From Candidatus Harpocratesius repetitus (GTDB lineage: Archaea; Asgardarchaeota; Lokiarchaeia; Sigyniarchaeales; Promethearchaeaceae): a stretch of DNA of 32,000 bases. Of this stretch, positions 1-27,742 are shown piece after piece. The notes under the pieces are model-generated. The model was given only the letters and a program-made list of their open reading frames with translations, did no database searches and had not been told where the DNA came from. A program made the position numbers and the translations under genes. The stretch spans positions 3,600,001 to 3,632,000 of the forward strand of contig JAIZWK010000001.1 of NCBI GenBank assembly GCA_021498095.1, given 5' to 3'. The stretch's first letter is position 1, and each line of letters starts with the position of its first letter.

Positions 1-281
1 TTTATTTTCCCATATATAGAAAGCGGATTTGGAGTATCAGTTTTGGAATAATTTCCCCGCGAACCATCGAAAATAAAATCTGTGGAGATATAAATTAATT
101 TTCCATCGTTTTGTTTCACCGCATGAGCAACATTTTTTAGTCCAAACGCATTTATTAAATTGGCTCTATCAGGATAATCTTCACATGCATCCACGTTAGT
201 TATAGCTGCAGTCAAAATGACCAGATCTGGCTTATAATCTTGAATAACCTTGAAAACATCATCTTGTTTTGTGATATCCGT
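1..281 (-). pseudogene. rfbD: dTDP-4-dehydrorhamnose reductase fragment lacking its N-terminus; continues beyond the window start
   Basis: Manual translation of a frame missed by the ORF track: TDITKQDDVFKVIQDYKPDLVILTAAITNVDACEDYPDRANLINAFGLKNVAHAVKQNDGKLIYISTDFIFDGSRGNYSKTDTPNPLSIYGKIK, carrying RfbD motifs (TNVDACE, YISTDFIFDG, PNPLSIYGK). No start codon or GxxGxxG segment; it abuts rfbB sequence directly. Confidence 0.9.
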
Positions 282-1123
282 AAATCATCTCCGGGACGAT
301 TTCGTACAATGGTAATTAAATCTTCACTTTTTTCAAAGGTTTGAAGCAAGTATTTAACCATATTTATGTTGGAAACTTCCGCATCGCCACCGAAATTGTA
401 TACTTCTACTGGGATTCCTTTTTCTAATACTACTAAAATCCCACGACAATGATCAGTAACATGAATCCAATCACGAACGTTAGAACTATCTCCGTATACA
501 AGAAGCGGTTTATCTGTTTGAATATTACGGATCATAAGTGGAATGAGTTTTTCTGGGAATTGATACGGCTCATAATTATTCGAGCAACGTGTAATTACGA
601 CGGGCAAATTATAAGTGTGATAAAATGCTTGAACGAGCATATCTGCTGCGGCTTTACTCGAGGAATAGGGACTTCGAGGATGGATGGGTGTTTTTTCAGT
701 AAAGATAGGATCATCAAATCCTAGATGACCGTAAACTTCATCTGTGGAAAATTGGATAAATTTCTTTACCTGATTTCGATTTTTTTTAAAAGCATTTAGG
801 AGAGTTAGCGTTCCTTTAACATTTGTATTGATAAAGATATCGGGATTTGAGATCGAGCGATCTACATGGGATTCTGCAACAAAATTGATGATTACTTCAA
901 TATTGTATTCTTACAACAGATAATCTATAAGTTTATAATTACAGATTGAACCTTTAATAAAATGGTAACGTGTGTGGTTGACAAAATCATGTAAGTTTTC
1001 GGGATTTCCAGCATATGTCATTGCATCAAGATTCCAAATTTCAAAATTTGGATATTCGGTTAAGATAAGTCGGATAAAATTACTTCCGATAAAACCAAGC
1101 CCACTGGTGACAAGAAGTTTCCT
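282..1123 (-). pseudogene. rfbB: dTDP-glucose 4,6-dehydratase pseudogene
   Basis: Single frame reads KLLVTSGLGFIGSNF...DAMTYAGN...[TAA at 911-913]...FVAESHVDRSI...QFSTDEVYG...PRSPYSSSKAAAD...RCSNNYEPYQFPEKLIP...VRDWIHVTDHC...RPGDDLR. AGG sits where ATG is expected (1123-1121, after an AAGGT), there is an in-frame stop, and the C-terminus is missing. The ORF-track entry 212..640 is only part of this. Confidence 0.92.
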
Positions 1124-1305
1124 ATCAGTTTTACCTTAAGAAAATGGTTTATGGATAGAAATATCAGTTATGTTAAATAAATTTGGGTTATTTAAGCAAT
1201 ATCGCAGATTTGATTATATAATCCCTTCAAACTCAAAGTATGAAAAATAGATCTGAAAAAATAGGAAAGATAGCTAAGCATTAAATGATTAATTTTAATT
1301 ACTCG

Positions 1306-5734: not shown

Positions 5735-6268
5735 TTACGAAAGATATTCTCGTAATGAGGGATTTTTTTTGTCTCGGGTAGATAATATCGGAGATTCTAC
5801 TTTCCAATCCACATGAATTTCTGGATCATTCCATAAAATTCCTCGTTCTAATTGTGGATTATAGTATTCATCCACTTTGTATTGAATTTCTGCAGTTTCT
5901 GAAAGAACTGAAAATCCATGTGCAAATCCTTTGGGAATACAAACCTGTAGGAAATTTTCAGCTGAAAGTTCCACACCCCACCATTGCTTAAATGTGGGAG
6001 ATTCTGGTCGAATATCAACCATTACATCCCAAATTTTCCCCACCACACACCGTACTAACTTGGTCTGTCCAGGATTAATTTGAAAATGCAGACCTCGAAC
6101 AGTATTTTTCACCGATTTGGAATGATTATCTTGTCGAAAAACGATGTCAATTCCTATATCGCAAAATTTCTTGTAGGAATAAGATTCCAAGAAAAAACCG
6201 CGGTTATCATGAAAAACTCGGGGTTTAATCAACCAAACATCAGGAAAAGGCGTTGAAATTTTCTCCAT
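5735..6268 (-). CDS. rfbC: dTDP-4-dehydrorhamnose 3,5-epimerase
   Basis: DNRGFFLESY, QDNHSKS, VRGLHFQ, QTKLVRC, DIRPESPTF, PKGFAHGF, YKVDEYYNP, GILWNDPEI. Confidence 0.96.
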   Translation of the reverse strand: MEKISTPFPDVWLIKPRVFHDNRGFFLESYSYKKFCDIGIDIVFRQDNHSKSVKNTVRGLHFQINPGQTKLVRCVVGKIWDVMVDIRPESPTFKQWWGVELSAENFLQVCIPKGFAHGFSVLSETAEIQYKVDEYYNPQLERGILWNDPEIHVDWKVESPILSTRDKKNPSLREYLS

Positions 6269-10986: not shown

Positions 10987-11685
10987 TCAAATTTTGTTAT
11001 ATTCTGTGTTTTTTAATAAAAATTCGCAATATTTAATATCTTCATATGAATCAATATCAACACTTCGTGTACGAGGCATGATATATGGCATTATTTTTTT
11101 TGAATAAAATCCTTGATTTTTTCTGAAACTTTGTACAGATGAGATATATATCGCTCCATTGGAAATATAGGTTTGTGGAAGAGTTTGGCGTGGTTTTTTA
11201 AAATAATCAAGAGAAAACAATGGATGGAGGTGATTCTCTGAAATTGTGAAACTCCAATATGGAGAATGTTCAGATTCGCAAACGCTTATAAGCGCTTCAT
11301 TTGATCTTTGCTGCAGAAATTTAGATATTGCTTCATCAATATCCTCAGTGGAACGAAGTGGTGAAGTTGGTTGTAGTAAAACAAGCAAATCGGAATTATT
11401 AATTTTAGGTTGCATTTGAGAGAGAAAATCCATAATAACATCTACTGTAGAAGAATTATCTTGAGCAAGTTCATCTGGGCGATTAATAATTTCAATTGGA
11501 AAGCTTTTAACATATTCCTTAATATTGGGATCTTCAGTAGATACAAAAATAGAATCAATTAAATTAGAGTTTAATGCAGCATCAATTGTATATTTTATAA
11601 GTGGTTTCTGTAAAATAGGAAATAAGTTTTTTCGTTTTACTCCCTTAGATCCACCTCGAGCGGGAATGATTGCATAATTTGCCAT
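10987..11685 (-). CDS. Acylneuraminate (CMP-nonulosonate) cytidylyltransferase, copy 1 (NeuA/PseF/LegF family)
   Basis: IIPARGGSKGVKRKN, VSTED, RPDELAQDNSST, LLQPTSPLR, SNGAIY, SVDIDSYED. Confidence 0.95.
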   Translation of the reverse strand: MANYAIIPARGGSKGVKRKNLFPILQKPLIKYTIDAALNSNLIDSIFVSTEDPNIKEYVKSFPIEIINRPDELAQDNSSTVDVIMDFLSQMQPKINNSDLLVLLQPTSPLRSTEDIDEAISKFLQQRSNEALISVCESEHSPYWSFTISENHLHPLFSLDYFKKPRQTLPQTYISNGAIYISSVQSFRKNQGFYSKKIMPYIMPRTRSVDIDSYEDIKYCEFLLKNTEYNKI

Positions 11686-11750
11686 ATAATTAAGTTAGAT
11701 ACACAATAAGAAAAAAATTATTATTTCAGATAAGAATATATATTTCAATA

Positions 11751-12641
11751 ATGCATTTTCAAGAAAAGATTTTTGTTTCGAGTTCTTGTTTAAAACCAAA
11801 ACTCTCTATTTCAGAAATTGTGGATTTATATTTGAAGAATAAGATTAACAAAATCGAATTAGGCTCGTCCCATAAATATGAAGAAAATATAATTTCAAAA
11901 TTAAAGAAAAAGAAAAAAGAAAATCCTTTTGAATGTACAATACATGCTTATTTTCCTCCTTTAGAAGACTCTTTCTTTTTTGTAAATCTCGCTTCAAATA
12001 AGCCAAAAATTGCCTTAAGAAGTAAAAATTTTGTTAAGAAAATGATTGATTATTCAGCAGAATTGGATGCAAAAATGTGCAGTTTTCATTCTGGATTTCG
12101 TTGGGATCCTGTAGATTCATTAAAATATAATGGTCAGGAGATATATGATTATGATAAATCCTATCAAATTTTCCTTCAAAATATTAAAGAAATTTGTATT
12201 TATGCAGAAAAAAAGAATGTTCCTTTGGCATTTGAACCCAATGTTGTATCAGCAAACAGTTTAATCAATGGAAAAAATTTACTCTTAATGATGTGTGAAC
12301 ATGATGAAATTAGAAAACTATACAAAGATTTGGAAGATACTGGAATAAGAAATTTGCAATTATTATTAGATGTTGGTCATTTAAAGGTTACTGCAAATAA
12401 TCTTAATTATAGTTTTGATGACTTCATTAAAGAGTTTAAAAAATATATTGGAGAAATCCACATTCATGATAATGATGGTTTAATGGATACTCATGATCAA
12501 ATCACCCAAAATTCAAAAATTGGAAAAGTTTTAGAATCTTTAAAAAATGAAAAAGACATGATCTTTACTTTAGAAGCAGGGAAATTGAGTATTGATGAAA
12601 TTAAAGAACAAAAAGAATTATTAAGAATAATTCTATATTAA
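11751..12641 (+). CDS. Xylose isomerase-like / AP endonuclease 2 family TIM-barrel metalloenzyme
   Basis: IHAYFPP, FHSG, AFEPN, LLDVGHL, EIHIHDNDGLMDTHD, FTLE: metal-ligand pattern of the family. Confidence 0.85.
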   Translation: MHFQEKIFVSSSCLKPKLSISEIVDLYLKNKINKIELGSSHKYEENIISKLKKKKKENPFECTIHAYFPPLEDSFFFVNLASNKPKIALRSKNFVKKMIDYSAELDAKMCSFHSGFRWDPVDSLKYNGQEIYDYDKSYQIFLQNIKEICIYAEKKNVPLAFEPNVVSANSLINGKNLLLMMCEHDEIRKLYKDLEDTGIRNLQLLLDVGHLKVTANNLNYSFDDFIKEFKKYIGEIHIHDNDGLMDTHDQITQNSKIGKVLESLKNEKDMIFTLEAGKLSIDEIKEQKELLRIILY

Positions 12642-12653
12642 TGAGGAATCCTT

Positions 12654-13730
12654 ATGAAAAGTGTAAGTTTTGCACCTCCAGCAATTGGAATAGAAGAATA
12701 TGAAGCAATTAATAAAGTATTTTCATCTGGTTGGTTATCTCAAGGTCCCGAAACAGACCAATTTGAGAAAGAATTAGCCGAATATATTGGATGTAAGCAT
12801 GTAATTGTTGTAAATAATGGAACTTCTGCGTTAATCTGTGCTTTACTGTCACATGGTATTCAACCTGGTGATGAAGTAATTGTTCCAGCATATACTTTTA
12901 TTGCAACGATTAATTCTGTATTATCAATAGGCGCTAAACCTGTTTTAGCTGATATAGACAGTCAAACTTGGAATACTACCCCAGAATTGATGAAAAAAAA
13001 GGTTACAGAAAAAACAAAAGCAATAATGCCTGTTGATATTGCAGGAATGGCAGTAGATATTGATGAATTTGAAGATTTTGCATCAGAAAATAACCTAATT
13101 ATGATAGAGGATTCAGCAGAATCAATAGGTGGGGAATATAAAAAAAAGAAAATTGGTTCTTTTAACCATACCTCAATTTTCAGCTTTCATATGGCTAAAT
13201 TAATTACCACTATTGAAGGTGGATGTATATCTACAAATGATGATGAAATTGCTCAAAAAATTCGTTCAATTAGAAACCATGGTATGGAAGGTAAATATCA
13301 TTATGTAAACTTTGGATTAAACTTACGCACAACAGATATTCAATCAAGTATAGGTCGGATTCAATTAAAAAAAATTGATCAATTTATTAATCACAGAAAA
13401 AAAATGGTCCAAATTTACCGTGATAGATTAGGAGATAGAGTTTCATACCAAAAAATACCATCATATATATCAATCCATCCCTATATGATTTTTTCAATTC
13501 AAGTAGATGGAAATCGTCGAGATGATATTAATACATATTTAAATCACAATCAGATCTCTACTAGAATGTGGCCATCGATTTATAAATCACCATATCATAA
13601 TCAACTTTTTAATGATGAATTTCCAAATGCTGATAAAGTTGCAAATAGCCTTATTAATTTGCCAATAGGGAATGGAATAAAAGAAAATGAAATAAACTAT
13701 GTTTGTGATATATTACTGAAAAAACTATAA
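12654..13730 (+). CDS. DegT/DnrJ/EryC1/StrS PLP-dependent sugar aminotransferase, GDP-perosamine synthase-like
   Basis: SGWLSQGP, NNGTSAL, GDEVIVPAYTFIAT, IEDSAESIG (AE variant as in PerA), FSFHMAKLITTIEGG (PLP lysine), GLNLRTTDIQ; immediately upstream of gmd. Confidence 0.9.
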   Translation: MKSVSFAPPAIGIEEYEAINKVFSSGWLSQGPETDQFEKELAEYIGCKHVIVVNNGTSALICALLSHGIQPGDEVIVPAYTFIATINSVLSIGAKPVLADIDSQTWNTTPELMKKKVTEKTKAIMPVDIAGMAVDIDEFEDFASENNLIMIEDSAESIGGEYKKKKIGSFNHTSIFSFHMAKLITTIEGGCISTNDDEIAQKIRSIRNHGMEGKYHYVNFGLNLRTTDIQSSIGRIQLKKIDQFINHRKKMVQIYRDRLGDRVSYQKIPSYISIHPYMIFSIQVDGNRRDDINTYLNHNQISTRMWPSIYKSPYHNQLFNDEFPNADKVANSLINLPIGNGIKENEINYVCDILLKKL

Positions 13731-13745
13731 GAAGGAAGAAATGAA

Positions 13746-14801
13746 ATGAAAAAAGCCTTGATTACTGGTGTTAATGGACAAGATGGTTCTTATCTTGCAG
13801 AATTATTATTAAAGAAAGGATATGAAGTACATGGTTTAATTCGACGAAGTAGCATAATGAAATTTGATCGAATAGAGCATCTCATTCAAGATCCACAATT
13901 AAAAGACAAGCATAAATTCTACTTACATTATAATGATATGACAGATTCTTTAAACATAACAAAATTACTAAAAACAATAGAACCAAATGAAATTTATAAC
14001 TTAGCTGCTCAAAGCCATGTTAGAATTTCATTTGAAACGCCTGAGTATACATCTAATGTTGATGCATTGGGAACACTGAGATTATTGGAATCTGTTAAGT
14101 TCTTAGGATTAGAGAACAAAACAAGAATCTATCAAGCTTCAACAAGTGAATTGTACGGATTAGCAACTGAAATACCTCAATCAGAAACAACTCCCTTTCA
14201 TCCACGAAGTCCTTATGCAGTTGCAAAACTTTATGCTTACTGGATAACTATCAATTATCGTGAAGCGTATAATATGTTTGCGAGTAATGGAATATTATTT
14301 AATCATGAATCCCCTCGAAGAGGAGAAAATTTTGTTACTAGAAAAATCTCTTTAATGGCTTCTGAAATTGCTTTAGGAAAACGAGAGTGTTTATATTTAG
14401 GAAATATGTATGCCAAGCGAGACTGGGGGTACGCAGCAGAATATGTTGAAGCGATGTGGAAAATACTACAAATAGATAAACCAGATGACTTTGTCATAGC
14501 AACTGGAGAAACGCATACAGTTAAAGATTTTGTTGAAGCTGCATTTCATCATTTAAATATACCAATTCGTTGGGAAGGTGAGGGTGTAGACGAAGTTGGA
14601 ATTAATGAAATCAATAACAAAATAATTGTTCGCATTGATCCTTACTATTTTAGACCTGCTGAAGTTGAATATCTTTTAGGAGATCCAACAAAAGCTAAAA
14701 AGATACTAAATTGGGAACCCAAAGTCAAATTTAAGGAATTAGTAGGTATTATGGTTGATTCTGACTTGAATTTATTAAAGAAAAAATATCATCTTCTATA
14801 G
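13746..14801 (+). CDS. gmd: GDP-mannose 4,6-dehydratase
   Basis: [89 protein letters not shown]. Confidence 0.97.
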
Positions 14802-14810
14802 AATGGAATA

Positions 14811-15920
14811 ATGGTTATACAAATGAGAATTGAAATTAAAAACAAACGAACTATTGGAAAATTAGAGCCTATTTTTTTGATTGCAGAGATTGGAATTAAC
14901 CATATTCTCAATGAAAAGGACAAAATGAAATTGGGACTATCAAATTCCTTTGAAGTTGCATGTAAAATGATCGATATAGCAAAAGAAGCTGGAGTTGATG
15001 CAGTTAAATTTCAAACATTTAAAACTGAAGAACTTCAATTTCAAGGAATAAGTAAACCTGATTATCAAGAACAAAATGAAGAAATTAGAGAATCCTATTA
15101 TGATTTAATAAAAAAATATGAAGAAGATTATAATGAACAAAAAAAGATAGCCGATTATTGTAATAAAGTCGGAATACTTTTTCTTTCTACACCTTATGAT
15201 ATTGAAAGTGCTCTTTTTCTGGTTAACGAATTAGAAGTTCCAATTATCAAATTAGCATCTATCGAATTGAATAACCACCATTTTTTAAAACAAATCGTAC
15301 AGTTTAATCTGCCAATAATTTTATCAACAGGTTTAAGTAATGAAGAAGATGTAGAAGAAACCATAAAATTAGCTCAAAAAATGCATTTTAAAGACCGTTT
15401 AATATTACTTCATTGTACATCTGATTATCCAGCAAAAAAACATGAAATCAATTTAAATATCTTAAAAAACTACTATAATAAATATCCGAATATGTTATTT
15501 GGTTATAGTGATCATTCAGAAAACAATTTACCATCTTTAGGTGCCGCTGCAATTGGTGCAGTGGTAATTGAAAGACACTTTACATTAGATAAATCATTTT
15601 CAGGCCCAGATCACCGTGCATCTATGAATCCCAGCGAATTAAAGAAATGGGTGGAAGAAATTAGAAATATGGAAGTAATTCTTGGAAATTATACTAAAGA
15701 AATAACAGAATCTGAAAAAAAAAATCTTAATATGCGTAAATTCTTAGTTCTTAATCCAGTTAAAAAAGGGACTATTATTTCAGAAAATCACTTAACTACA
15801 ATGCGCACTGGAAAAGGAATTCTTCCAAAAAATTGCAATCTACAGAAAATTATAGGTAAAAAAGTTTGCAAAGATATAAAAAAAAGGACCATTTTTTCAT
15901 GGGATCTCATTTCTGATTAA
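14811..15920 (+). CDS. Nonulosonate synthase (NeuB family) with C-terminal SAF domain, copy 1, atypical N-terminal motif
   Basis: IAEIGINH, DAVKFQTF, FLSTPYD, IILSTG, LLHCTSDYPA, GYSDHS, IERHFTLDK, GPDHRAS, SAF-like tail. Confidence 0.93.
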   Translation: MVIQMRIEIKNKRTIGKLEPIFLIAEIGINHILNEKDKMKLGLSNSFEVACKMIDIAKEAGVDAVKFQTFKTEELQFQGISKPDYQEQNEEIRESYYDLIKKYEEDYNEQKKIADYCNKVGILFLSTPYDIESALFLVNELEVPIIKLASIELNNHHFLKQIVQFNLPIILSTGLSNEEDVEETIKLAQKMHFKDRLILLHCTSDYPAKKHEINLNILKNYYNKYPNMLFGYSDHSENNLPSLGAAAIGAVVIERHFTLDKSFSGPDHRASMNPSELKKWVEEIRNMEVILGNYTKEITESEKKNLNMRKFLVLNPVKKGTIISENHLTTMRTGKGILPKNCNLQKIIGKKVCKDIKKRTIFSWDLISD

Positions 15921-15960
15921 AAACCTTAGATATTTTTATAATATAAATAATATTGGAATA

Positions 15961-16647
15961 ATGAATATGGTGATTCATAGAAAGATTCTAATAATTGGGG
16001 CAGGAGTCCACGCTCAAGTAATACTTGATATCTTATCTTATGATTTAAACAATGAAATAATTGGATTCACAGATAAAGATAAAAGAAAGCATAATTCATT
16101 AATTAATGGAATACCTGTAATTGGGGATGATAGTGTCATTCCCAAACTAATTAAAAATAATGAAATTAATTCGATTATCATTGGATTAGGCTATGAACTT
16201 ATCGAAAAAAGAGAAATTCTTTATAATGAAATTAATAAATTAAACATTGAATTAATAAATGCAATTCATCCCTCTGCCATTATTGCAAAAAATGTAAAGC
16301 TTGGGAAAGGAATTGCGATTATGGCAGGATCTATTATAAATCCCAATAGCGATATTCAAGATAATGTTGTAATAAATACAGGAGCAATTATTGATCATGA
16401 CAATTATATAGGAAAGAATTGCTTTATCCAAGTAGGAGCTAAGTTAGCAGGAAATGTTAGAATTAGTGAGAATTCCATAATTGGATTGGGAGCAAATATT
16501 TTGGAAAAAGTAAAAATTGGGAGAAACTCCATAATAGGTGCTGGAAGTGTAGTTAATAGGAATATTCCAGATAATGTGATTTTTGTCGGAGTTCCTGCAA
16601 AGTTCTTGAGAAAAAATATCCGTATAACTAATGAAAGAATAAATTAA
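15961..16647 (+). CDS. Sugar N-/O-acetyltransferase, NeuD/PglD/PerB family (left-handed beta-helix)
   Basis: LIIGAGVHA, IGFTDKD, AIHPSAII, INTGAIIDHD, hexapeptide repeats, GVPAK. Confidence 0.92.
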   Translation: MNMVIHRKILIIGAGVHAQVILDILSYDLNNEIIGFTDKDKRKHNSLINGIPVIGDDSVIPKLIKNNEINSIIIGLGYELIEKREILYNEINKLNIELINAIHPSAIIAKNVKLGKGIAIMAGSIINPNSDIQDNVVINTGAIIDHDNYIGKNCFIQVGAKLAGNVRISENSIIGLGANILEKVKIGRNSIIGAGSVVNRNIPDNVIFVGVPAKFLRKNIRITNERIN

Positions 16648-16666
16648 TAAAAAATAGGATAAATGT

Positions 16667-17878
16667 TTGAATATGAAGATTAAAGAGAAATTAGTCCAAT
16701 CAAATAAAATAATACTCATTGGTTTTATTCAAAATCATCATCCAATTTACATTGCCCTAATTAATTTTTTGCTTGAATTCAATCCTTCCATTACGTTATT
16801 AACCACAAAAGAAATTTTCATGCAAATCCAACATGAGATTGATTCAAACAAAATAGATTTACATCTTGAATCGCGCAAATTAAATCGCATGTTGAAAAAA
16901 AATTTGAAATTAATAAATTCTCATGAAATCGTCATAATGGAAGAATATTATGGTGGTTTTATTAAAATCTTTAATTTAAAATTCAAAAATCCCAAAAAAA
17001 TTGCAATAGTTCATAATGTGAATAAATGGTTTCTTGTAAGGGGAAGTATTTATTATTTTATTGATCTTCTCTTTAAATCAAGATATATATCTCAATTTGA
17101 TGCATATATAGTAATGTCCCCTGTAGTAAAAACATACTTAAAATCTTTTATAAACAATAAGAATATCTTCTTTTTCCCAGGAGAAGAAAACTATTCTTCA
17201 GAACCAAACCCTTATCATAAACTAGAAAAATTAGATCAAAATATCATACATAATGGAAATTACATTGAGATTGTTGTTCCAGGAATGATTTCAGAAAAAA
17301 GAAGAGAATATATCAACTTATTACTGGTTTTAAAGCAATTTTATAAAAATAATCCTACTTCTAAAATTAGAATTAACCTTTTAGGATCAATTAACAATAA
17401 GGAAAATGATCAAGATAGAGATAAAATTTTAGAAATTATCAACGAATGTAATAATCTTTCTCCAATTGAAGGAGAAAGAATAAAATATGGTAAAAAATTT
17501 ATCCCAATGGAGGAATTTACGAAAACATTGGAAAAAGCAGATTTAATATTGTCTAACGCAAAAGTGTTTAATCTTTTGGAAGATCGTCTAGAAATATATG
17601 GAATAACAAAAATAACGGGGATTTCTTATATAATCTATCGATATGAAAAACCTGCTATAATTCCAAATCATCAAAATATATTACTTGGTTTTGATAATCA
17701 ATTTATTAAGTTTTCAAATTATACTGATATTATAGATATTTTCAACCAAATTGAAAAAAAAGAGATAAATTTAGAAATTTTGAAGCGAAATGCTTTTAGA
17801 AATAGAAAAAAATTTAATCAATTGATAAAAACAGAAAAAAATAAGATCAAGGATTATTTGAATTCTACTGATATGTGA
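16667..17878 (+). CDS. Uncharacterised protein, probable GT-B glycosyltransferase
   Basis: Soluble 403 aa; AIVHN, IVVPGMISEKRREY, LEKADLIL, YGITKITG and KPAIIP resemble GT-B C-terminal lobe elements; last gene of the per-gmd-neuB operon. Confidence 0.55.
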   Translation: MNMKIKEKLVQSNKIILIGFIQNHHPIYIALINFLLEFNPSITLLTTKEIFMQIQHEIDSNKIDLHLESRKLNRMLKKNLKLINSHEIVIMEEYYGGFIKIFNLKFKNPKKIAIVHNVNKWFLVRGSIYYFIDLLFKSRYISQFDAYIVMSPVVKTYLKSFINNKNIFFFPGEENYSSEPNPYHKLEKLDQNIIHNGNYIEIVVPGMISEKRREYINLLLVLKQFYKNNPTSKIRINLLGSINNKENDQDRDKILEIINECNNLSPIEGERIKYGKKFIPMEEFTKTLEKADLILSNAKVFNLLEDRLEIYGITKITGISYIIYRYEKPAIIPNHQNILLGFDNQFIKFSNYTDIIDIFNQIEKKEINLEILKRNAFRNRKKFNQLIKTEKNKIKDYLNSTDM

Positions 17879-17889
17879 AAAAAGGTAAA

Positions 17890-20250
17890 TTATTTTAGAA
17901 ACCTGCGAATTTTTCTGTAAGCTTGTATAAATAAAGTTATTATTATACGAATGTGAAATAAAAGAAGAGGATATCTTAGTAAAACATGTAAAAATCTATT
18001 TTTCATAATTAATTTTGAAAAAATATTCATTTTATGAACAAAAATTGGATTATAAATTCTACGATATTTTTGACTCTCAGTTATTTCAATGTACTTAAAT
18101 AATATACTTTTTCTATGCATAATTTTTTGTTTTAGTTTAGAATCTTTGAGAAGGAAGGTATAATTAGAATTTAGAAAAGGAAGAAATTCATTAGGTAAAA
18201 ATTCTGTTTTTATACGTTCCAATTTTGTTTTTTTATTAATCACTTTCTCAAATTTCTTTGACTGAATTAAGAATTTATTAGTAATTTGATAATTTTGAGT
18301 AAATATTCCCCGAGAAATTCGATCATCTTTTATTAACTTTTCCTTTATAATATTAGCTAAATGTAATTTAATTCTATTAACTATATGGATATATATCTTA
18401 TTGGCATAATTTAAATATTGAATAAAAAGATGATTTGGGAAAATTAGATTATTTTTACGGAAGAAATTATTCCTATTCAAAAAGTTTTGAATTAAGCTTA
18501 TGTTGATTATAGGATCTTCATTAAATTTAATACATATTTGTTCGTATATATATAAAGGATATTTTATTGCGTTTGTAACCTGAAGACCTATTCTTGTTCC
18601 TTTGTCTCTTTCATTAGGTTTAAAATAAAAGGGTATTGATACAGTTGAGATTAACTCAACTAATTGAATCATTTGATAATCAAGATCATCAAGAATAAAC
18701 GATGAATAAGAGATTTTTCTCCCACACAAATAAGTTAGAGAAGTAGCAGGTCTAATCATTTGAATATCTTTAAATAAATTCTCATTTATAATCATTGGAG
18801 CATGTTCATATAATAAATATTTCTCTTCCCAACTAAAATGACTTTTCAGAAGAAAATGGATTTGATCATTATTTATTTTCTTCTCATCTATTATAAAACA
18901 TAAGTCAATATCTGAATTTCCAACTGCATGAACAGTTCCAAATTGAAAAATTGAGATTATACCATCAATTTGGCAGAATTTTTTTATTATTTTTTGAGTG
19001 CAATAATTGTAAAAAGAAAGATCTTCAAATGGGTAAGATTTTTCTGATTTATTAAAATAGCCTTTTTTTTGAAGATATTCAAATCCATTAATACAGTATT
19101 GAGAAAATTTGAATGAATAAAACAAATTATTTAATTGATTCCAAAATCGATTAATTCTCCTATTCAATTTTATTTCTAAAACAGAAAAGAATAGGTTTAA
19201 AAATCGAATATTAAAGAGAAAAGAAAATATTATTCGTAAAAATGTAGTTTTTTGGGGTGAACTCCCCCAAAACATATAGAATTGATTTACAGACTGATAA
19301 AATTGCTCTATTTCTGGAAAGATAGATTTAAATTCCTCAGAAAAGATTATATTGAAGGATTCTTTTTTATAGCAGAAAACTCCGAGTGTTTGCAAAAAAC
19401 TAAAGGGAAATGAATAGATTCGATGAATATAACGCACTTTCTTGAAAATATTAAGTGATTTCGTTTTACTTTCGTAATATAATGCTAAAGCATCTGAAAT
19501 AATACTTAGAAAATATTTCCTTTCATTGATATAGTTTTTAATTTCCATAATGTTTATTAAATTATCTAAAGACCATACTTCACCAAAGTCTATGCAGGAT
19601 AATGGTAAATACTGATTTGAGAAAAAATTCAATTGAAAATCTATTGAAATAAAAACACCATGAAGTTGAAATATTTGAAATTTGTAAATTATATCACAAA
19701 ATTCTTGTATTTTATTTCTAATATTTCGTAAATAGTTTTTATTTTGAAAAGATTCTTCCTTTATAACAATAAAAAGATCTATATCGCTCCATCCTGGTTT
19801 ATAATCACGAGAACCAATACTGCCATTTAAGAGAATAATTGAAAAATCATCTTTATATTCATTAATTTTTTTATTCAAATCGGATAAAAGCTTTTTTTGA
19901 AGAAAGAAGCCATAGTAGTTTTTTTTTTTTTTCTTTTTATTAACAGAAATTGAATGCTTTTTTGTTTTTAATTCTGATTTTTGAGACATATTTCTTATTA
20001 TAAAATATAATTTGATTATTCTATCTTCAATACTTAATTCAGAATAATCATCAAATATCGAATTTTTAATCAAATTTGGAAATTTAGAAGAAAATTGTGA
20101 AATTTGGTGAGTTAATTCTTTTTTATCCCTTTTTGAAAATTTTTTTTTTTTGCTAAAAACATTCGAATTAATGTTAAAGTATCTATAAAGCAAATCATTA
20201 AATTCAATATTTAGTTTTAAAATCATTTCTTCTGAAGAGAATTCTTCCAT
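17890..20250 (-). CDS. Uncharacterised 786-aa protein with two Pol-beta-superfamily nucleotidyltransferase domains
   Basis: Motif 1 LNGSIGSRDYKPGWSDIDLFIV (about 19775-19840); motif 2 FQFGTVHAVGNSDIDLCFII (about 18895-18955); each followed by a helical-looking region. Confidence 0.75.
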   Translation of the reverse strand: MEEFSSEEMILKLNIEFNDLLYRYFNINSNVFSKKKKFSKRDKKELTHQISQFSSKFPNLIKNSIFDDYSELSIEDRIIKLYFIIRNMSQKSELKTKKHSISVNKKKKKKNYYGFFLQKKLLSDLNKKINEYKDDFSIILLNGSIGSRDYKPGWSDIDLFIVIKEESFQNKNYLRNIRNKIQEFCDIIYKFQIFQLHGVFISIDFQLNFFSNQYLPLSCIDFGEVWSLDNLINIMEIKNYINERKYFLSIISDALALYYESKTKSLNIFKKVRYIHRIYSFPFSFLQTLGVFCYKKESFNIIFSEEFKSIFPEIEQFYQSVNQFYMFWGSSPQKTTFLRIIFSFLFNIRFLNLFFSVLEIKLNRRINRFWNQLNNLFYSFKFSQYCINGFEYLQKKGYFNKSEKSYPFEDLSFYNYCTQKIIKKFCQIDGIISIFQFGTVHAVGNSDIDLCFIIDEKKINNDQIHFLLKSHFSWEEKYLLYEHAPMIINENLFKDIQMIRPATSLTYLCGRKISYSSFILDDLDYQMIQLVELISTVSIPFYFKPNERDKGTRIGLQVTNAIKYPLYIYEQICIKFNEDPIINISLIQNFLNRNNFFRKNNLIFPNHLFIQYLNYANKIYIHIVNRIKLHLANIIKEKLIKDDRISRGIFTQNYQITNKFLIQSKKFEKVINKKTKLERIKTEFLPNEFLPFLNSNYTFLLKDSKLKQKIMHRKSILFKYIEITESQKYRRIYNPIFVHKMNIFSKLIMKNRFLHVLLRYPLLLFHIRIIITLFIQAYRKIRRFLK

Positions 20251-20383: not shown

Positions 20384-21691
20384 ACGAAGAAAATATTAAT
20401 TGTACCCCATTACGTAAATTCCTTAATATATTACCAAAAATTATTTCAAAAATTTAATAGTCATGATTTTGAGTTAGTTTATCTAATCAGAAATAACCAT
20501 TTTGGCAAAATTATGAAGGATTATTGTATTAAATCAAATTTAAACTATATCAAACTAAAGTATCCTCTTTTTAATAATTCTAAATTCGCAAGTATTCTTA
20601 ACATTTTATTTATTGGTGTCTTTAAATTACAAGTCAAAAAAATATTGCAAAAAAATAATCCAAACTTGATAATTCAAACTAATGACACGAATCTTATTAA
20701 CAATGTAATAGTTTCCACTGCTAAAAAGAAAAATATTTTAACTTTAGTTATACAATGGGCTCAAACTGCTCCAGAAGATTATTATTTAAAACTAAAGAGT
20801 TTAAATACAAATCATAAAGAATTAACAAAAAAAACACATATAACACATTGGTTCCTCCATAAATTAACAAATTTCATGCTAAAAATCTCTCAGATACCTA
20901 AATTCAATAAAAAATCATTAGCCCAAGGTAATTCAGACTATGTTTTCGTAATTAACGATTATACAAAGAAACTTTTAATTAAACAAGGTGTAAAAAAAGA
21001 AAAAATATATATCTCAGGTTCTACAGCATATGACGATGCGTTATCCATAAATCTACCTAAAAGAGAAGAAATTAAGAAAAAAATAGGAATAAATAATAAT
21101 AATATTACAATTTTATTCATTTCTCAACCGTTTTATGTTAAAGATATTCGAATTATGAAAAAAGAAAAACAAATTCAATACATCAAAGATATAATTGTTT
21201 TCTTTAATAATTTTTATCAAACACAGAATAAAGAGGTAAATATAATTTTAAAACTACACCCTGTTGAGCTTAAAAAAGATTATATTGAATTGACTGATTC
21301 TTGTAAAAATATATTGATTTTAAGTGATTTTAATAACTTAGAATTAATAAAAATCTCAGATTTATGTGTTGGATTCAGTTCAACACTTCTACAATCAGTA
21401 ATAATAATGAAAAAGCCAATCTTGTGTTTAAATATGATTCCAGAACTAAAATTTATAATTGAAACTCAATCAAAAATATCTGGAATAACTCAAGATATAA
21501 AATCTTGGAATGAATTATCTAAAACCTTAAAGATCTTGGAAGAAAATGGATATCAACAGTTAGATAATGTAAATATGAAAAACTTTGTTTTAGATCAGAA
21601 AGTTTACTTAAGATTAGAGACTTGGATTCATGAATTACTATTTGATAATCATATAATTTCTACGAATTTAGAACCAAATGAACAAGAATAA
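20384..21691 (+). CDS. Putative GT-B transferase (capsule-synthesis / CDP-glycerol phosphotransferase / sialyltransferase-like). Start extended to ACG 20384; first in-frame ATG is 20513
   Basis: ILFISQP, ILKLHPVE, SDLCVGFSSTLL, KPIL; the frame is open 43 codons upstream of the ATG (TKKILIVPHY...) behind a GGTGGAG SD-like site. Confidence 0.65.
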   Translation, partial: TKKILIVPHYVNSLIYYQKLFQKFNSHDFELVYLIRNNHFGKIMKDYCIKSNLNYIKLKYPLFNNSKFASILNILFIGVFKLQVKKILQKNNPNLIIQTNDTNLINNVIVSTAKKKNILTLVIQWAQTAPEDYYLKLKSLNTNHKELTKKTHITHWFLHKLTNFMLKISQIPKFNKKSLAQGNSDYVFVINDYTKKLLIKQGVKKEKIYISGSTAYDDALSINLPKREEIKKKIGINNNNITILFISQPFYVKDIRIMKKEKQIQYIKDIIVFFNNFYQTQNKEVNIILKLHPVELKKDYIELTDSCKNILILSDFNNLELIKISDLCVGFSSTLLQSVIIMKKPILCLNMIPELKFIIETQSKISGITQDIKSWNELSKTLKILEENGYQQLDNVNMKNFVLDQKVYLRLETWIHELLFDNHIISTNLEPNEQE

Positions 21692-21703: not shown

Positions 21704-23308
21704 ATGAATGTAAAAGATTTTTGGATAAATTATACTAAAAAAATAAATATTTATCGAGAAGAAAAAAAAATTTCTTCTGATACAGTAGATTTATTTAAGG
21801 AACTTAAATCTACAAATAAATTACAAGGGAAAACTGTGGTATTTAATACGGTCCGCAGTTTCAAAAATATTTTTGACTTAGAATTATTTTTTGGAAAATT
21901 ATTAGCTAAAAATGGAGCGAAAGTTATAATATTATTAGATAATGGTGTTTTAAATCATTGGGATACAATTAAATTTGATTCTTTAAATGTAATTAAGTTA
22001 GAAAGGAAAAAACTCAACCCTTATTATAAATTTTTTTCGAATTTTACAAGTTTTATTTCACCTCAAATTAGAATAATAAAATTACATAAAGAGATTTATC
22101 AAGATCCTAATTTAGAAATTATATTTTATAGTAATATTTTGAAAGGTATTGGGTTTTCTGATATAAAGAATAAGAATTTCCATCACCATGCAAAAGCTTC
22201 AACAATTCGATTTTTCAAAAACTCTGATTTTCAGATTGATGACCCCCCTTATTCTAATTATTATGACCTATCGATGGAAAATTGTAAATTGACATTTGCC
22301 ATTGGTGAACAAATATATGAAAAATACCATCCAAATGTATTTATCACTTCTCATGGTATATATTCAACTTGGGGTCCTATGTATGACTTTTTTAAAACAA
22401 AGAAAATTAAAAGTTATGTCTATGCCGGGAAACATAGTCATGCTCTAAATCAAAAATACATTTACTTTACAGACTCAAAAGTTCAAACTTTAACAAGATC
22501 GAGTTTTTGGAATAAATATAAGAATACACAAGTAACTACAGAAATGAAAAAGAAAGTGGATGAATATTTTAAAACTAGATTTAGACATGCTACAATGGAT
22601 ACAAAAGTTTATTTTGGTGAAGAAGCAAATATTCTTCAAATTGTAAAAGATAAACGCAAGAAATTTAATATTGCAATATTTCCTAATTCAATTTGGGACG
22701 GAAATATCCATGATCGTCATCAAGCATTTGAAGGAATTATCGATTGGTTGGTGAAGACGGTATATTATTTCAGAAATAGAGAAGATTGTCAAGTTTATAT
22801 TAAATTTCATCCCGCAGAAATAACTTTTTTTCAAAATCCAGAAGGATTAGCTGATATCCTAAAAAAGAAAATCCCAGGATTGGAATCATTTGAAAATATT
22901 AAATTAATTAGACCTCATGAAAAAATTGAAACATACAAATTTTTAAAGAGTGGTATCGATTTAGGTATTCTTTATGATGGAATCTTAGGATTAGAACTTC
23001 CATACTTGAGAATTCCGGCGTTATTAGCCGGAGTAGGGGGAAGATTTACGATAGAAGATGGAAATTTCACAATCAAAAATAAGGATGATTATTTTAACAT
23101 CCTTAATAATTTGGATTATTGGATTGAAAATTTCAAGTCAAATTATGATTATTATTTAAACCAAATCATTAGATATACTTATTGGTATATTTTTGAACAT
23201 CCATTTGAACTTGTAACTCAATCCCCTACAGGTCGATATCAAAGATCATTGAAAGGATTAAGTAAAAAAGATTTAGTAATACCTGATAAACTGCTTTCTT
23301 TGTTATAG
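21704..23308 (+). CDS. Capsular polysaccharide biosynthesis protein (KpsS/Capsule_synth-like GT-B), possible nonulosonate transferase
   Basis: VFITSHGIY, IAIFPNSIWDG, VYIKFHPAE, GILGLELPYLRIPALLAG. Confidence 0.6.
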   Translation: MNVKDFWINYTKKINIYREEKKISSDTVDLFKELKSTNKLQGKTVVFNTVRSFKNIFDLELFFGKLLAKNGAKVIILLDNGVLNHWDTIKFDSLNVIKLERKKLNPYYKFFSNFTSFISPQIRIIKLHKEIYQDPNLEIIFYSNILKGIGFSDIKNKNFHHHAKASTIRFFKNSDFQIDDPPYSNYYDLSMENCKLTFAIGEQIYEKYHPNVFITSHGIYSTWGPMYDFFKTKKIKSYVYAGKHSHALNQKYIYFTDSKVQTLTRSSFWNKYKNTQVTTEMKKKVDEYFKTRFRHATMDTKVYFGEEANILQIVKDKRKKFNIAIFPNSIWDGNIHDRHQAFEGIIDWLVKTVYYFRNREDCQVYIKFHPAEITFFQNPEGLADILKKKIPGLESFENIKLIRPHEKIETYKFLKSGIDLGILYDGILGLELPYLRIPALLAGVGGRFTIEDGNFTIKNKDDYFNILNNLDYWIENFKSNYDYYLNQIIRYTYWYIFEHPFELVTQSPTGRYQRSLKGLSKKDLVIPDKLLSLL

Positions 23309-23316
23309 TATAGAAT

Positions 23317-24195
23317 TCAGTTCCAAAATGAGGTATTAATATTAACAATTTTACTTAATTTTTGATTTGGATTTTTAAAAAACTTCTGAAGATTTGAAAC
23401 CGTTTCTAAATCCATAGAAGGATATCCTACTTCTTTTTTATAATTGAAAGCAATCATTTTATGATAAAGTTGTGCTACTTGTCCTCCATTTTTGAAAAAT
23501 GGTTTTCCAAATTTTGTAATTCGATCAATAATTTTCTGGATTTTTTGATTTTTAGGTAAAACTGTAACATTTTTTTTGATTGATACATCGATTTCAATAT
23601 CTGGATTAATACCTAAAAAAACGAATATATCTCGTAAAATTTTCTGAGTCGAATTAAAATCTTTGGTATATTCTTCAAAGGTTGTGAAAAACATTTGTTT
23701 TTTAGGAAAAAAGTGTAAAAAATATTCAACATGCATAAAATATAAACTACGATATAAATAACCTTCTAGTTTTCCTAGTTCTATATATTTCATTTCTTCT
23801 TCAATTACTTCTTTAAATGCACGGTTTTCCCTTCCTTTTTTATAAGCATGCCAATAATCTGAATATGCTCTATCAATAGGATTTCGTAAAATCCATATTA
23901 ATTTTGCAGATGGTATAATTTTTGCAATATTTTCTGCGTATTCTTTCTTCAAACAATAATTTGGTGTTTTTTCACCAATGATCGATTGATTTTGATAACC
24001 TGAAAATTCATTTGCATACCAATCCAAACCTTTAGAATAATGTTTTTCGTTGTTAAAGAAGTGAATTTCATGATCAGCCATAAAAATATCTGGATGTTGA
24101 CTTAAATGATAACTTAAAGTGCTTGTGCCAGATTTCATTGCTCCAACGATTAAAATATTTGGCAATATTATTTTTCTTCCCCCCAGAAATATCAA
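23317..24195 (-). CDS. PAPS-dependent sulfotransferase (probable true start TTG at 24165)
   Basis: 5'-PSB GAMKSGTSTL, EIHFF, GEKTPNY, 3'-PB ILRNPIDRAYSDY; GGGGGAAG purine run upstream of the TTG. Confidence 0.92.
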   Translation of the reverse strand: MIFLGGRKIILPNILIVGAMKSGTSTLSYHLSQHPDIFMADHEIHFFNNEKHYSKGLDWYANEFSGYQNQSIIGEKTPNYCLKKEYAENIAKIIPSAKLIWILRNPIDRAYSDYWHAYKKGRENRAFKEVIEEEMKYIELGKLEGYLYRSLYFMHVEYFLHFFPKKQMFFTTFEEYTKDFNSTQKILRDIFVFLGINPDIEIDVSIKKNVTVLPKNQKIQKIIDRITKFGKPFFKNGGQVAQLYHKMIAFNYKKEVGYPSMDLETVSNLQKFFKNPNQKLSKIVNINTSFWN

Positions 24196-24240
24196 TTATT
24201 TATTTTTATAAAGTAAAAAATGATAAAAAAATTCTCACTT

Positions 24241-25260
24241 CTATGATTTTAATCGAAAAAGAAATCTTTGAACGAATTCTTTAATAAGACGAGCAAAATC
24301 TTTAAAAGATTCGAGGAATTTGATCGGAGAATAAAAATCATGTAGATAAAAAACTAAATGATAATATGTTCGAGGAACAAAAATCTTTTTTTTTAATGCC
24401 ATGAATATAACATTTCGAGCGAGTCGTTTACTTTTAGCTAAACACAACAATTCAAATATTTTATAACAGAAAAATTGGTAAATTTCAATATCATCTTTAA
24501 TAAAAGATTTATACTTTTTCCAAATATAAAGATATGCCCATATTTTGGTAAAAGGCTTTTTTATTAAACTTTCATAGGTTATACTAGATTTATGAACATA
24601 ATGATTTAACAAAGGTTTACTTACATATTCACATTCATAATATAATGCGATTCTAATCCACATTTCATAATCTTGATGGCCTCCTTGCCTTAAAATTTCT
24701 GATTCATCGAACAAACCTACTTTCTTAAATACTTCTCGTTTGATGAGGGGATAAACACCAATCACTCCTTGAGTCAACATTTCTTTAAAGACTTTACCAG
24801 AATACTTTGGTAAAATATTTCGATTTAAACCAGGTTGAATCAAAGTCATTCCAGGAAAAACAAATCCAACCTTTTTTGGAGATTTCTGTAACTTTAGCAA
24901 TAATAATTCTAACATTTCAGGGCGCCAATCATCATCTGAGTCTAAAAGTATGATATACTCACCTGATGCTGCTTTTATTCCACGATTACGTGTGAAATTG
25001 GGTCCCATGTTTTTTGAATTTACAATAAGTTGGATATTAGAGTAATCTTTCATCAAGGAACGAATAATTGAAACAGTTTTATCTTTTGAACAATCATCCA
25101 CAACAATAATTTCAAAATTTTGATATGTTTGGTTTAAAACACTTTCAATAGCTCGTTTTATTGTTGACTGGCGATTGAATGAAGGAATAATTACAGATAT
25201 TAAACTAGATTCAATAGCTGAATTCATAATGGAATAATGGAATAATGTAATTTTAAGCAT
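24241..25260 (-). CDS. GT2 family glycosyltransferase
   Basis: ISVIIPSFNR, EIIVVDDCSKD, RNRGIKAASGEYIILLDSDD, QDYEMWIRI. Confidence 0.94.
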   Translation of the reverse strand: MLKITLFHYSIMNSAIESSLISVIIPSFNRQSTIKRAIESVLNQTYQNFEIIVVDDCSKDKTVSIIRSLMKDYSNIQLIVNSKNMGPNFTRNRGIKAASGEYIILLDSDDDWRPEMLELLLLKLQKSPKKVGFVFPGMTLIQPGLNRNILPKYSGKVFKEMLTQGVIGVYPLIKREVFKKVGLFDESEILRQGGHQDYEMWIRIALYYECEYVSKPLLNHYVHKSSITYESLIKKPFTKIWAYLYIWKKYKSFIKDDIEIYQFFCYKIFELLCLAKSKRLARNVIFMALKKKIFVPRTYYHLVFYLHDFYSPIKFLESFKDFARLIKEFVQRFLFRLKS

Positions 25261-27022: not shown

Positions 27023-27742
27023 TCAAAGAAACTTTTTTCTTTTTTTTATTAAAAATTCTGCAATATCCCAGTCATATTGATCATCGATATCAATACTTCT
27101 CTCTTTTGGCATGATATAGGGGATACAATTACGACCAATGATTCTTCTTTCTTTTAGTAATAATTCAGTTTTAGTTAAATAAATTGCGGCACCGTTTCGA
27201 GCATATAGTGGTTCTAAATCTTGTCTTCTTTTAATTTTCGATTGTGAATTTATATAACCTTTTATATATTTCTTATTTTTTTTCATTATTTTTTCAGGAT
27301 GATATATATGTGGTACTTCTACAACACTGACTAAAGAATCTGCTTGTGGATCATTTAGAATTAATTGAATTGAATTATCAATATCTTTTGCAGTTCTTAA
27401 TGGAGAAGTTGGTTGTAATATCATTATATAATCGGGTCTATACTGCTCTTTATCATTAAGATAATGTAAAGCATGAATTACAACATCAATGGTTTTTGAT
27501 TCGTCAGATGATAATGATACTGGTCTTTGGAATGGAGCTTCCATACCGCATGATTTGGAATAATTTATTATGTCTGGATCATCACTGGAAACAATGCATC
27601 TCGAAAGATATTTTGATTTTTCTACAGCATTAAAAGTATATTTTATAAGCGGTATTCCATTCAATGTTCGGATATTTTTTCGTAAAATCGTTTTTGATCC
27701 TCCACGTGCAGGAATTATACCCAAAATTTGTTTAATGTGCAT
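27023..27742 (-). CDS. neuA: Acylneuraminate cytidylyltransferase, copy 2
   Basis: IIPARGGSKTILRKN, VSSDD, RPVSLSSD, ILQPTSPLR, RNGAAIY, SIDIDDQYD; overlaps the neuC end by 11 nt. Confidence 0.93.
   Translation of the reverse strand: MHIKQILGIIPARGGSKTILRKNIRTLNGIPLIKYTFNAVEKSKYLSRCIVSSDDPDIINYSKSCGMEAPFQRPVSLSSDESKTIDVVIHALHYLNDKEQYRPDYIMILQPTSPLRTAKDIDNSIQLILNDPQADSLVSVVEVPHIYHPEKIMKKNKKYIKGYINSQSKIKRRQDLEPLYARNGAAIYLTKTELLLKERRIIGRNCIPYIMPKERSIDIDDQYDWDIAEFLIKKRKKFL

Follow-up and report, generated by a model that had tools for sequence, protein, structure and literature searches.

A plausible GDP-mannose-fed pathway to a nonulosonic acid with a new core sugar in the Asgard archaeon Candidatus Harpocratesius repetitus

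Many microbes coat their surfaces, flagella, pili and S-layers with nonulosonic acids, which govern phage, host and immune recognition. The subject here is a gene cluster in the closed, 4.36 Mb genome of Candidatus Harpocratesius repetitus. The cluster lies within positions 3,600,001 to 3,632,000 of contig JAIZWK010000001.1, a stretch of 32,000 nt that is called the window, and all window coordinates below are counted from its first letter. It comprises neuA1 and, transcribed divergently, an operon of six genes encoding a triosephosphate isomerase (TIM)-barrel protein (hereafter TIM), a DegT-family aminotransferase (DegT), the GDP-mannose dehydratase Gmd, the nonulosonate synthase NeuB1, a PerB-like acetyltransferase and a GT-B-like protein. 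On sequence evidence, these genes probably encode a single pathway that is fed by GDP-mannose and ends in a CMP-nonulosonate; confidence in the exact product is lower. An earlier interpretation of this DNA, referred to here as the sequence-only reading, had proposed such a pathway, and it is supported in its core, with the chemistry still predicted. The biosynthesis of a nonulosonic acid with a new core sugar, involving a new enzyme activity, is plausible.

Three core compositions of nonulosonic acids are known: 2-keto-3-deoxynononic acid (Kdn), neuraminic acid (Neu) and that of the pseudaminic (Pse), legionaminic (Leg) and acinetaminic (Aci) acids (PMC8157484). The closest described system to the operon is the CMP-legionaminic acid pathway of Campylobacter jejuni, which, in the summary given by a later paper, is GDP-linked and comprises LegB, LegC, LegH, LegG, LegI and LegF (Schoenhofen et al. 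2009, cited in PMC6137143). The archaeal legionaminic acid pathway of Halorubrum is classical and includes LegG (PMC6137143). The operon resembles the C. jejuni system in its predicted GDP-linked precursor and in the succession of 4,6-dehydration, DegT transamination at C4, β-helix N-acetylation, nucleotide removal, condensation with phosphoenolpyruvate (PEP) by a NeuB-family enzyme and activation with CMP. In addition, a manno-configured hexose would reach the synthase in both. The operon differs in being entered from GDP-mannose by Gmd and not by LegB, so that a hydroxyl and not an acetamido group is predicted at C5 of the product. It also has no hydrolysing 2-epimerase of the LegG/NeuC type (PF02350), whose place is taken by TIM or, in related loci, by a Nudix protein. 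Here, Epimerase_2 is absent from the operon and the only NeuC of the genome sits in a second gene set, described below.

Further known pathways resemble the operon in part. The route to GDP-N-acetylperosamine of Caulobacter crescentus and E. coli O157 is matched by a Gmd orthologue, by a DegT that has perosamine synthetase among its best matches, and by an acetyltransferase closest to PerB. In that route, GDP-N-acetylperosamine is an end product for a perosaminyltransferase, whereas the operon adds NeuB, NeuA and a candidate hydrolase. As the Gmd and Per-like genes are embedded with these three, release of the sugar and its extension to nine carbons are implied. In Kdn synthesis, a NeuB-family enzyme joins PEP to a mannose-configured sugar that carries a hydroxyl at C2, and a 5-hydroxy nonulosonate results, as is predicted for the operon. 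Kdn synthesis starts from mannose or mannose-6-phosphate and uses no dehydratase, aminotransferase or acetyltransferase, whereas the product predicted here is 7-acetamido and 9-deoxy. The NeuC/NeuB/NeuA pathway to N-acetylneuraminic acid (Neu5Ac) pairs the synthase with its own UDP-GlcNAc hydrolysing 2-epimerase and uses neither a dehydratase nor an aminotransferase. The operon and neuA1 differ in lacking NeuC and in encoding Gmd, DegT and an acetyltransferase; the second gene set fits that pathway instead.

In the proposed pathway, Gmd would convert GDP-mannose to GDP-4-keto-6-deoxy-D-mannose, a step for which orthology gives the identity of the enzyme and its role in the pathway is predicted. 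DegT would then aminate C4 to form GDP-perosamine, and the acetyltransferase, judged by its closest similarity, would convert this to GDP-N-acetylperosamine. TIM, which resembles endonuclease IV (Endo IV), would strip off the nucleotide to leave free 4-acetamido-4,6-dideoxymannose. The position held by NeuC, LegG or PseG in known pathways would thereby be occupied by TIM or, in some archaea, by a Nudix protein resembling GDP-mannose mannosyl hydrolase (Gmm). There would be no need for 2-epimerisation, because the sugar is already manno-configured. NeuB1 would join the free sugar to PEP, giving 7-acetamido-3,7,9-trideoxynon-2-ulosonic acid, the 5-hydroxy analogue of legionaminic acid. NeuA1 would activate this acid to the CMP-sugar, for transfer to a glycan by the GT-B-like protein or by transferases encoded nearby.

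In the NeuB reaction, carbon 3 of PEP attacks C1 of the hexose, and C2, C4 and C6 of the hexose become C5, C7 and C9 of the nonulosonate. N-acetylperosamine corresponds to the LegI substrate, 2,4-diacetamido-2,4,6-trideoxy-D-mannose, with a hydroxyl at C2 instead, and the predicted acid is related to legionaminic acid as Kdn is to Neu5Ac. Its formula would be C11H19NO8 (293.111 Da), with a residue mass of 275.10 Da; both this formula and the atom mapping had been given in the sequence-only reading and are correct by established NeuB chemistry. The product structure, its stereochemistry at C4 and C7, the substrate of NeuB1 and the reaction of TIM are all predictions.

The locus is compact. neuA1 (10987–11685, minus strand) encodes a predicted CMP-nonulosonate synthetase of 232 residues in the family CTP_transf_3 (PF02348, 95 bits), the best NCBIfam match of which is PseF (TIGR03584) at 155 bits, under the cut-off of 206. 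A divergent intergenic region of 65 nt (11686–11750) leads to the plus-strand genes. These begin with TIM (11751–12641; 296 residues; PF01261, AP_endonuc_2, 74 bits), the proposed GDP-sugar hydrolase, and DegT (12654–13730; 358 residues; PF01041, DegT_DnrJ_EryC1, 358 bits), the proposed GDP-perosamine synthase. They are followed by gmd (13746–14801), neuB1 (14811–15920; 369 residues; PF03102, 267 bits) and the gene for the left-handed β-helix N-acetyltransferase (15961–16647; 228 residues), which scores 212 bits to the NeuD/PglB/VioB subfamily TIGR03570 against a cut-off of 161. The last gene (16667–17878) has a TTG start and encodes 403 residues. From TIM onward, the gaps are 12, 15, 9, 40 and 19 nt, and the tight operon that had been described from the sequence, with gaps of 9–40 nt and neuA diverging 65 nt away, is borne out by all seven open reading frames.

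Pfam and NCBIfam assign neuA1 and the plus-strand genes from TIM to the acetyltransferase unambiguously. The 403-residue protein matched no family in either collection; its ESM Atlas features reach 0.98 to GT1/GT4 clusters, a lead only. The earlier statement that the operon ends in a glycosyltransferase stands as to the open reading frame, and the label itself comes from language-model features and no curated-family match, so that the protein is called a candidate GT-B/GT4-like glycosyltransferase here.

The dehydratase of the operon scores 561 bits to the gmd equivalog TIGR01472 (cut-off 415), compared with 111 bits to LegB (TIGR04180). Its alignment with E. coli Gmd (1DB3, 478 bits) spans the full length and shows the catalytic motifs conserved, and by these measures it is a true orthologue of Gmd. 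It is also the single Gmd that the genome holds. Orthologues of Fcl (best score 62 bits, cut-off 500), LegB (186 bits, cut-off 475) and PseB (64 bits, cut-off 408) are absent from the genome, as is a strong Polysacc_synt_2 protein (best 86 bits). Because the first three are missing, the adjacent DegT is, as far as gene content indicates, the sole evident consumer of GDP-4-keto-6-deoxymannose. For the same reason, a GlcNAc-type 4,6-dehydratase is lacking for a Leg or Pse route.

These scores bear on the possibility that the operon makes ordinary legionaminic acid, with its Gmd-like enzyme acting on GDP-GlcNAc as LegB does in C. jejuni. Relatives of the cassette do include Leg-like loci, which contain genes for LegB/RmlB-like dehydratases, nucleoside triphosphate (NTP)-transferases, PtmA-like short-chain dehydrogenases/reductases (SDRs) and HisH/HisF-like amidotransferases. 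Moreover, NeuB1 scores higher with the NeuB/LegI-type model NeuB_NnaB (333 bits, under the cut-off of 400) than with PseI (242 bits). However, the dehydratase has the scores and motifs of a full Gmd orthologue, the operon is without LegG, and no PtmE-type NTP-transferase gene was seen in the window. The chemistry is also established: the 2-acetamido group of GlcNAc is equatorial, and the 2-hydroxyl of mannose is axial. A legionaminic acid product is therefore regarded as very improbable.

In the PDB, DegT is matched best by QdtB (223 bits) and, near-equally, by perosamine synthetase of Caulobacter (221 bits), and its match to LegC (TIGR04181) is at family level only (242 bits, cut-off 420). 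DegT is 53–57% identical to its counterparts in three operons that carry a close relative of NeuB1 (L001, L005 and L012). The best PDB match of the acetyltransferase is the Caulobacter perosamine N-acetyltransferase PerB (4EA7; 149 bits, E 2e-42), followed by PglB (103 bits), PglD (84 bits) and VioB (79 bits). It is PerB-like by closest similarity, from which its activity is predicted. Together, Gmd, DegT and the acetyltransferase appear to fit the established GDP-N-acetylperosamine pathway.

The proposed hydrolase, TIM, belongs to the PF01261 superfamily, which is xylose-isomerase-like and includes the cobamide-remodelling phosphodiesterase CbiR. It shares the TIM-barrel fold and metal ligands with Nfo, the Endo IV of E. 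coli. TIM is no orthologue of Nfo, as it reaches only 20 bits with NF002198 (cut-off 244), and its context is sugar biosynthesis and not DNA repair. An hhalign comparison with Nfo gave a probability of 93% and paired eight of the nine ligands of its trinuclear metal site: H109, E145, D179, H182, H216, D229, H231 and E261 of Nfo correspond to H113, E162, D207, H210, H237, D246, H248 and E275 of TIM. The candidate counterpart of the ninth ligand, H69, is the invariant H65, which lies just upstream of the aligned stretch. Across 44 TIM homologues, H65, H113, E162, H210 and E275 are invariant, while D207 and H237, both of which are shared with epimerases, are conserved in 32 and 31 sequences; H248 is also not universal. 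Among the ligands, the histidines that set Endo IV apart are conserved best, and D207 and H237 least.

Structural comparison points in another direction. The AlphaFold2 model of TIM has a mean confidence (pLDDT) of 95.6 and its nearest solved structure is MJ1311, which is D-tagatose 3-epimerase-like, with a template-modelling (TM) score of 0.74; the value for Endo IV is about 0.6. Further structural neighbours are the D-psicose 3-epimerases (ketose 3-epimerases), UlaE and the 3-keto-glucoside 4-epimerase YcjR. In NCBIfam, TIM has weak matches to psicose and 5-keto-gluconate epimerases and also to CbiR, and a phmmer search of the protein against the PDB gave no match. The likenesses to epimerases, together with the frequent position of TIM next to DegT, speak for the main alternative for this enzyme. 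Here, one GDP-mannose-fed pathway would be retained and TIM would be an epimerase acting at C3 or C5, beside the 4-keto group, on GDP-4-keto-6-deoxymannose or on a free keto sugar. Another stereoisomer would be made, for example an L-series, pseudaminic-like 5-hydroxy acid, and the nucleotide would be removed by some further enzyme or by an activity associated with NeuB or NeuA.

The pattern of ligands argues against an epimerase, as the Endo IV-specific H65, H113 and H210 are present in 44 of 44 homologues and the epimerase-shared D207 and H237 are not. An epimerase would, in addition, leave the cassette without a hydrolase, and it would not account for the alternation of TIM with a Nudix hydrolase that is described below. 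A further point comes from fusion proteins. An exhaustive profile search returned 1043 representative clusters of the TIM family (50% identity) at E <= 1e-30 and, among its 150 best matches, there are three in which a GNAT acetyltransferase is fused to the N-terminus of TIM (P0209, P0245 and P0261; 430–444 residues). In searches for fused long forms with the window protein or the 44-sequence profile as query, none were found, which is weak evidence. The fusions place TIM near N-acylation and fit a step directly after it, just as PseG follows PseH. On balance, an epimerase is unlikely, and the prediction that TIM is a metal-dependent GDP-sugar hydrolase is made with even to somewhat better than even confidence. 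Elsewhere in the host genome, far from the window, a second AP_endonuc_2 TIM (75 bits) and a second DegT (304 bits) lie less than 3 kb apart (G000:C1:1775003-1779115).

Further support for a single pathway came from other genomes. A search of genome contigs with NeuB1 alone returned nothing; with an alignment of its clade as query, and one genome per species, the wider NeuB clade yielded 79 loci. To count the neighbours of NeuB, all open reading frames of 82 non-redundant loci were clustered, and DegT was found beside NeuB in 61, TIM in 54, NeuA in 49, an acetyltransferase in 49 and NeuC in eight. The set of Gmd, DegT, N-acyltransferase, NeuB and NeuA, together with either TIM or a Gmm-like Nudix protein, occurs in at least 10 further loci from archaea and bacteria. 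The operon is one archaeal copy of this widespread cassette. The set is found in six gene orders, with the genes overlapping or near-abutting and almost never with NeuC or LegG. Two loci read NeuA-SDR-NeuB-acetyltransferase-DegT-Gmd-Nudix (L001 and L005), and one contig reads NeuA...NeuB-TIM-DegT-Gmd with the acetyltransferase on the opposite side (P0009). The order is NeuA-NeuB-formyltransferase-TIM-Gmd in a Tara Oceans assembly (L007), NeuA-NeuB-DegT-Gmd in a Woesearchaeota bin (L011) and Gmd-NeuB-acetyltransferase-TIM-DegT in a gammaproteobacterium (L056). Gmd is embedded in the operon or flush with it in Alphaproteobacteria (L058), Chlorobiota (L035), Omnitrophota (L018) and Thorarchaeota (L076). 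The Gmd proteins inside these related clusters score 536–579 bits, and the sugar N-formyltransferase of L007 parallels N-formylperosamine chemistry.

Chance would not account for the arrangement, since many genomes that are unrelated to one another hold this set next to related NeuB genes. Its retention through six orders is the usual signature of functional coupling, and a single conserved functional set of six enzymes with Gmd as the entry is thereby supported. The sequence-only reading had argued for a six-step logic with Gmd at the start, and had pointed to recurrent gmd-per-neuB-neuA-TIM neighbourhoods as a way to check it. Such neighbourhoods were found across archaea and bacteria. The core of that argument is supported by the recurrence in six orders, by the single Gmd and the lack of Fcl, LegB and PseB, by the PerB-like acetyltransferase and by the exchange of TIM for Nudix.

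The same data bear on the possibility that two unrelated pathways are neighbours here. One, with Gmd, DegT and the acetyltransferase, would then make GDP-N-acetylperosamine as a hexose donor. In the other, NeuB1 and NeuA1 would make an ordinary sialic acid or Kdn, either from mannose or from N-acetylmannosamine (ManNAc) that the NeuC 11 kb away provides. Gmd, PerA and PerB on their own are indeed a complete known route to a glycosyl donor, and a NeuD-type acetyltransferase beside NeuB is typical of sialic acid clusters. NeuC is present in the window and glycan loci often mix pathways. However, Gmd, DegT, acyltransferase, NeuB and NeuA have stayed together in six orders and in distant lineages, where the locus mostly lacks NeuC, and two separate pathways would leave TIM or Nudix without a role. 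The acetyltransferase matches PerB far above other members of its subfamily, and the complete NeuB2-NeuC-NeuA2 set elsewhere in the window would make a second synthase and CMP-synthetase for the same sugar redundant. Two independent pathways are thus quite unlikely.

In the known pathways, NeuC/LegG or PseG is needed to release the hexose from its nucleotide, and the operon has none of these. Among 39 NeuB genes flanked by 6 kb or more to either side, TIM only was present in 29, NeuC only in two, both in one and neither in seven, and these seven include the Nudix loci. In the loci read from the NeuB1 clade, TIM and Nudix replace one another and in no case occur together. The Nudix proteins of L001 and L005, which were identified by Pfam and NCBIfam, best match Gmm (62 and 52 bits), under the cut-off of the model. 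GDP-mannose mannosyl hydrolase cleaves a GDP-hexose to GDP and the free sugar.

Some TIM-type loci have no dehydratase. In 21 of 25 such genomes, a Gmd or Gmd-like gene is present elsewhere, often on the same contig at 1–20 kb from the locus, and 14 of these exceed the cut-off; many of the genomes are partial (0.6–1.5 Mb). The counts are descriptive only, and many of the genomes come from related SAR11 cells. As a control, Gmd was found in five of 14 well-known genomes. Five of the genomes with dehydratase-free loci were searched for LegB and PF02719, and neither a LegB orthologue nor a strong PF02719 match was found. Among the wider TIM-type loci are also Leg-like clusters that contain genes for other dehydratases, NTP-transferases, GHMP kinases and class-III aminotransferases as well as HisH/HisF-like genes. 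The cassette is modular, with Gmd as one of several entry enzymes.

Several of these relatives have unusual features. The DegT proteins of five bacterial cassettes (L056, at 12511-13947, L035, L037, L045 and L058) are 475–488 residues long and carry an N-terminal CBS domain. The HisH/HisF-like genes of L056 are of the kind tied to acetamidino-modified nonulosonates. In another bacterial locus (L040:7112-13632), two DegT proteins and two acyltransferases, one a β-helix protein and the other a GNAT, surround NeuB together with a LegB/RmlB-like dehydratase and TIM, a gene content that hints at a more heavily aminated product.

NeuB1 keeps the K-F-Q, SDH, E-x-H and GPDH motifs and the C-terminal R of NeuB enzymes. 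In a tree from a quick IQ-TREE search, with SH-aLRT as the only support measure, it falls in a clade of nine members (SH-aLRT 97), and its best homologues, at 50–59% identity, are from archaeal metagenome bins. It has a 12-residue insertion in the β1-α1 loop (residues 32–43; 14904–14939, plus strand), following the GxNH motif. All nine members of the clade carry the insertion, including those of three operons without Gmd (L003, L012 and L006). It is absent from NeuB2, from bacterial homologues and from the bacterial and Thorarchaeota operons with an embedded Gmd. The insertion therefore marks lineage and not substrate, and it was rejected as a marker of specificity. The sequence-only reading was correct that the active-site loop is altered; the loop is no argument for a new substrate, as its distribution follows lineage. 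Within the same clade, L006 encodes a NeuA::NeuB fusion of 606 residues and two further NeuB genes, and L001 has three NeuB genes; some archaeal bins hold three nonulosonate synthase genes within 20 kb.

A number of observations weigh against the single GDP-mannose-fed pathway or parts of it. NeuB1 retains every canonical sugar-contact residue that can be mapped, so its sequence gives no specific pointer to a 2-hydroxy substrate. Two operons of its clade, L003 and L012, carry an RmlB/LegB-like dehydratase in place of Gmd, and membership of the clade thus does not fix the substrate. The NeuC 11 kb away could in principle supply NeuB1 with ManNAc. The predicted structure of TIM resembles ketose 3-epimerases no less than it resembles Endo IV. 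Gmd and Nudix genes occur together in ordinary GDP-fucose and colanic acid clusters too. Finally, a search of 40 related genomes, two of them from the same genus, turned up no orthologous operon (the best NeuB was 45% identical). This makes the operon a mobile one within a variable glycan island and is silent on its function.

A broader proposal can be put forward only tentatively, with rather less than even confidence. Here, a fourth nonulosonic acid core, 5-hydroxy, 7-acylamino (N-acetyl or N-formyl) and 9-deoxy, would be made from GDP-mannose by a cassette that spans SAR11, Prochlorococcus, candidate-phyla bacteria, DPANN and Asgard archaea. An Endo IV-like TIM with a trinuclear metal site would have been recruited as the nucleotide-sugar hydrolase, and the Gmm-like Nudix protein would be its non-orthologous substitute. 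If true, the 5-hydroxy-7-acetamido-9-deoxy acid would add a fourth core to the nonulosonates, and nucleotide-sugar hydrolysis would be a new reaction for the TIM fold. Many environmental genomes with genes annotated as sialic acid synthase would make another sugar (the TIM family has about 1000 clusters at 50% identity), and a new enzyme activity would account for the missing NeuC/LegG step in genomes with the cassette. The new CMP-sugar and the hydrolase would be useful for chemoenzymatic glycan synthesis. In addition, the presence of a canonical sialic acid set beside the new one would allow a clean comparison of both systems in one organism.

In the literature within reach, which covered a minority of subscription journals, neither a Gmd-fed nonulosonate route nor the predicted 5-hydroxy-7-acetamido-9-deoxy acid was found described, and nothing relevant was found on a TIM barrel or sugar phosphate isomerase in nonulosonic acid clusters. 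The earlier statement that the acid is not known as a described product agrees with this, and with the listing of three cores only in PMC8157484. Literature matches from Brucella for perosamine with NeuB were false leads. For another Asgard archaeon, Prometheoarchaeum syntrophicum, a preprint reports O-glycans with unassigned terminal residues of 303.10 and 311.08 Da; the glycan masses that it states (801, 909 and 1213) do not all sum with these increments (10.64898/2026.04.15.718822). A link between these residues and the pathway was rejected, as they differ from the predicted 275.10 Da and the likely counterpart genome has a distant NeuB only.

The second gene set of the window is on the minus strand and consists of NeuB2 (28992–30032; 323 bits to NeuB_NnaB), NeuC (27732–28931; 389 bits to TIGR03568, cut-off 236) and NeuA2 (27023–27742). 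It is a canonical set that probably makes Neu5Ac, and NeuB1 and NeuB2 are the only NeuB genes of the genome.

The remainder of the window has features of a glycan locus. An RmlB-like dTDP-glucose 4,6-dehydratase gene (78–1126, minus strand) has in-frame stops, one TAA and one TGA, and is a probable pseudogene or assembly error. The open reading frame at 212–640 matches the C-terminal half of the RmlB family only, upstream of an intact RmlC (5735–6268). Between the operon and the transferase genes lies an antisense gene (17890–20250, minus strand) for a protein of 786 residues with weak NTP_transf_2 matches only. It is followed by a gene (20513–21691, plus strand) for a protein of 392 residues with weak matches (48 bits) to Epimerase_2, a BFO_1060-family glycosyltransferase and a 'surface carbohydrate biosynthesis protein', which makes it a candidate nonulosonate transferase, and by an open reading frame of 534 residues with no family match (21704–23308, plus strand). 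A sulfotransferase (PF00685) and a GT2 glycosyltransferase are side by side at 23317–25260 (minus strand), and the presence of the former in a glycan locus suggests that the glycan is sulfated.

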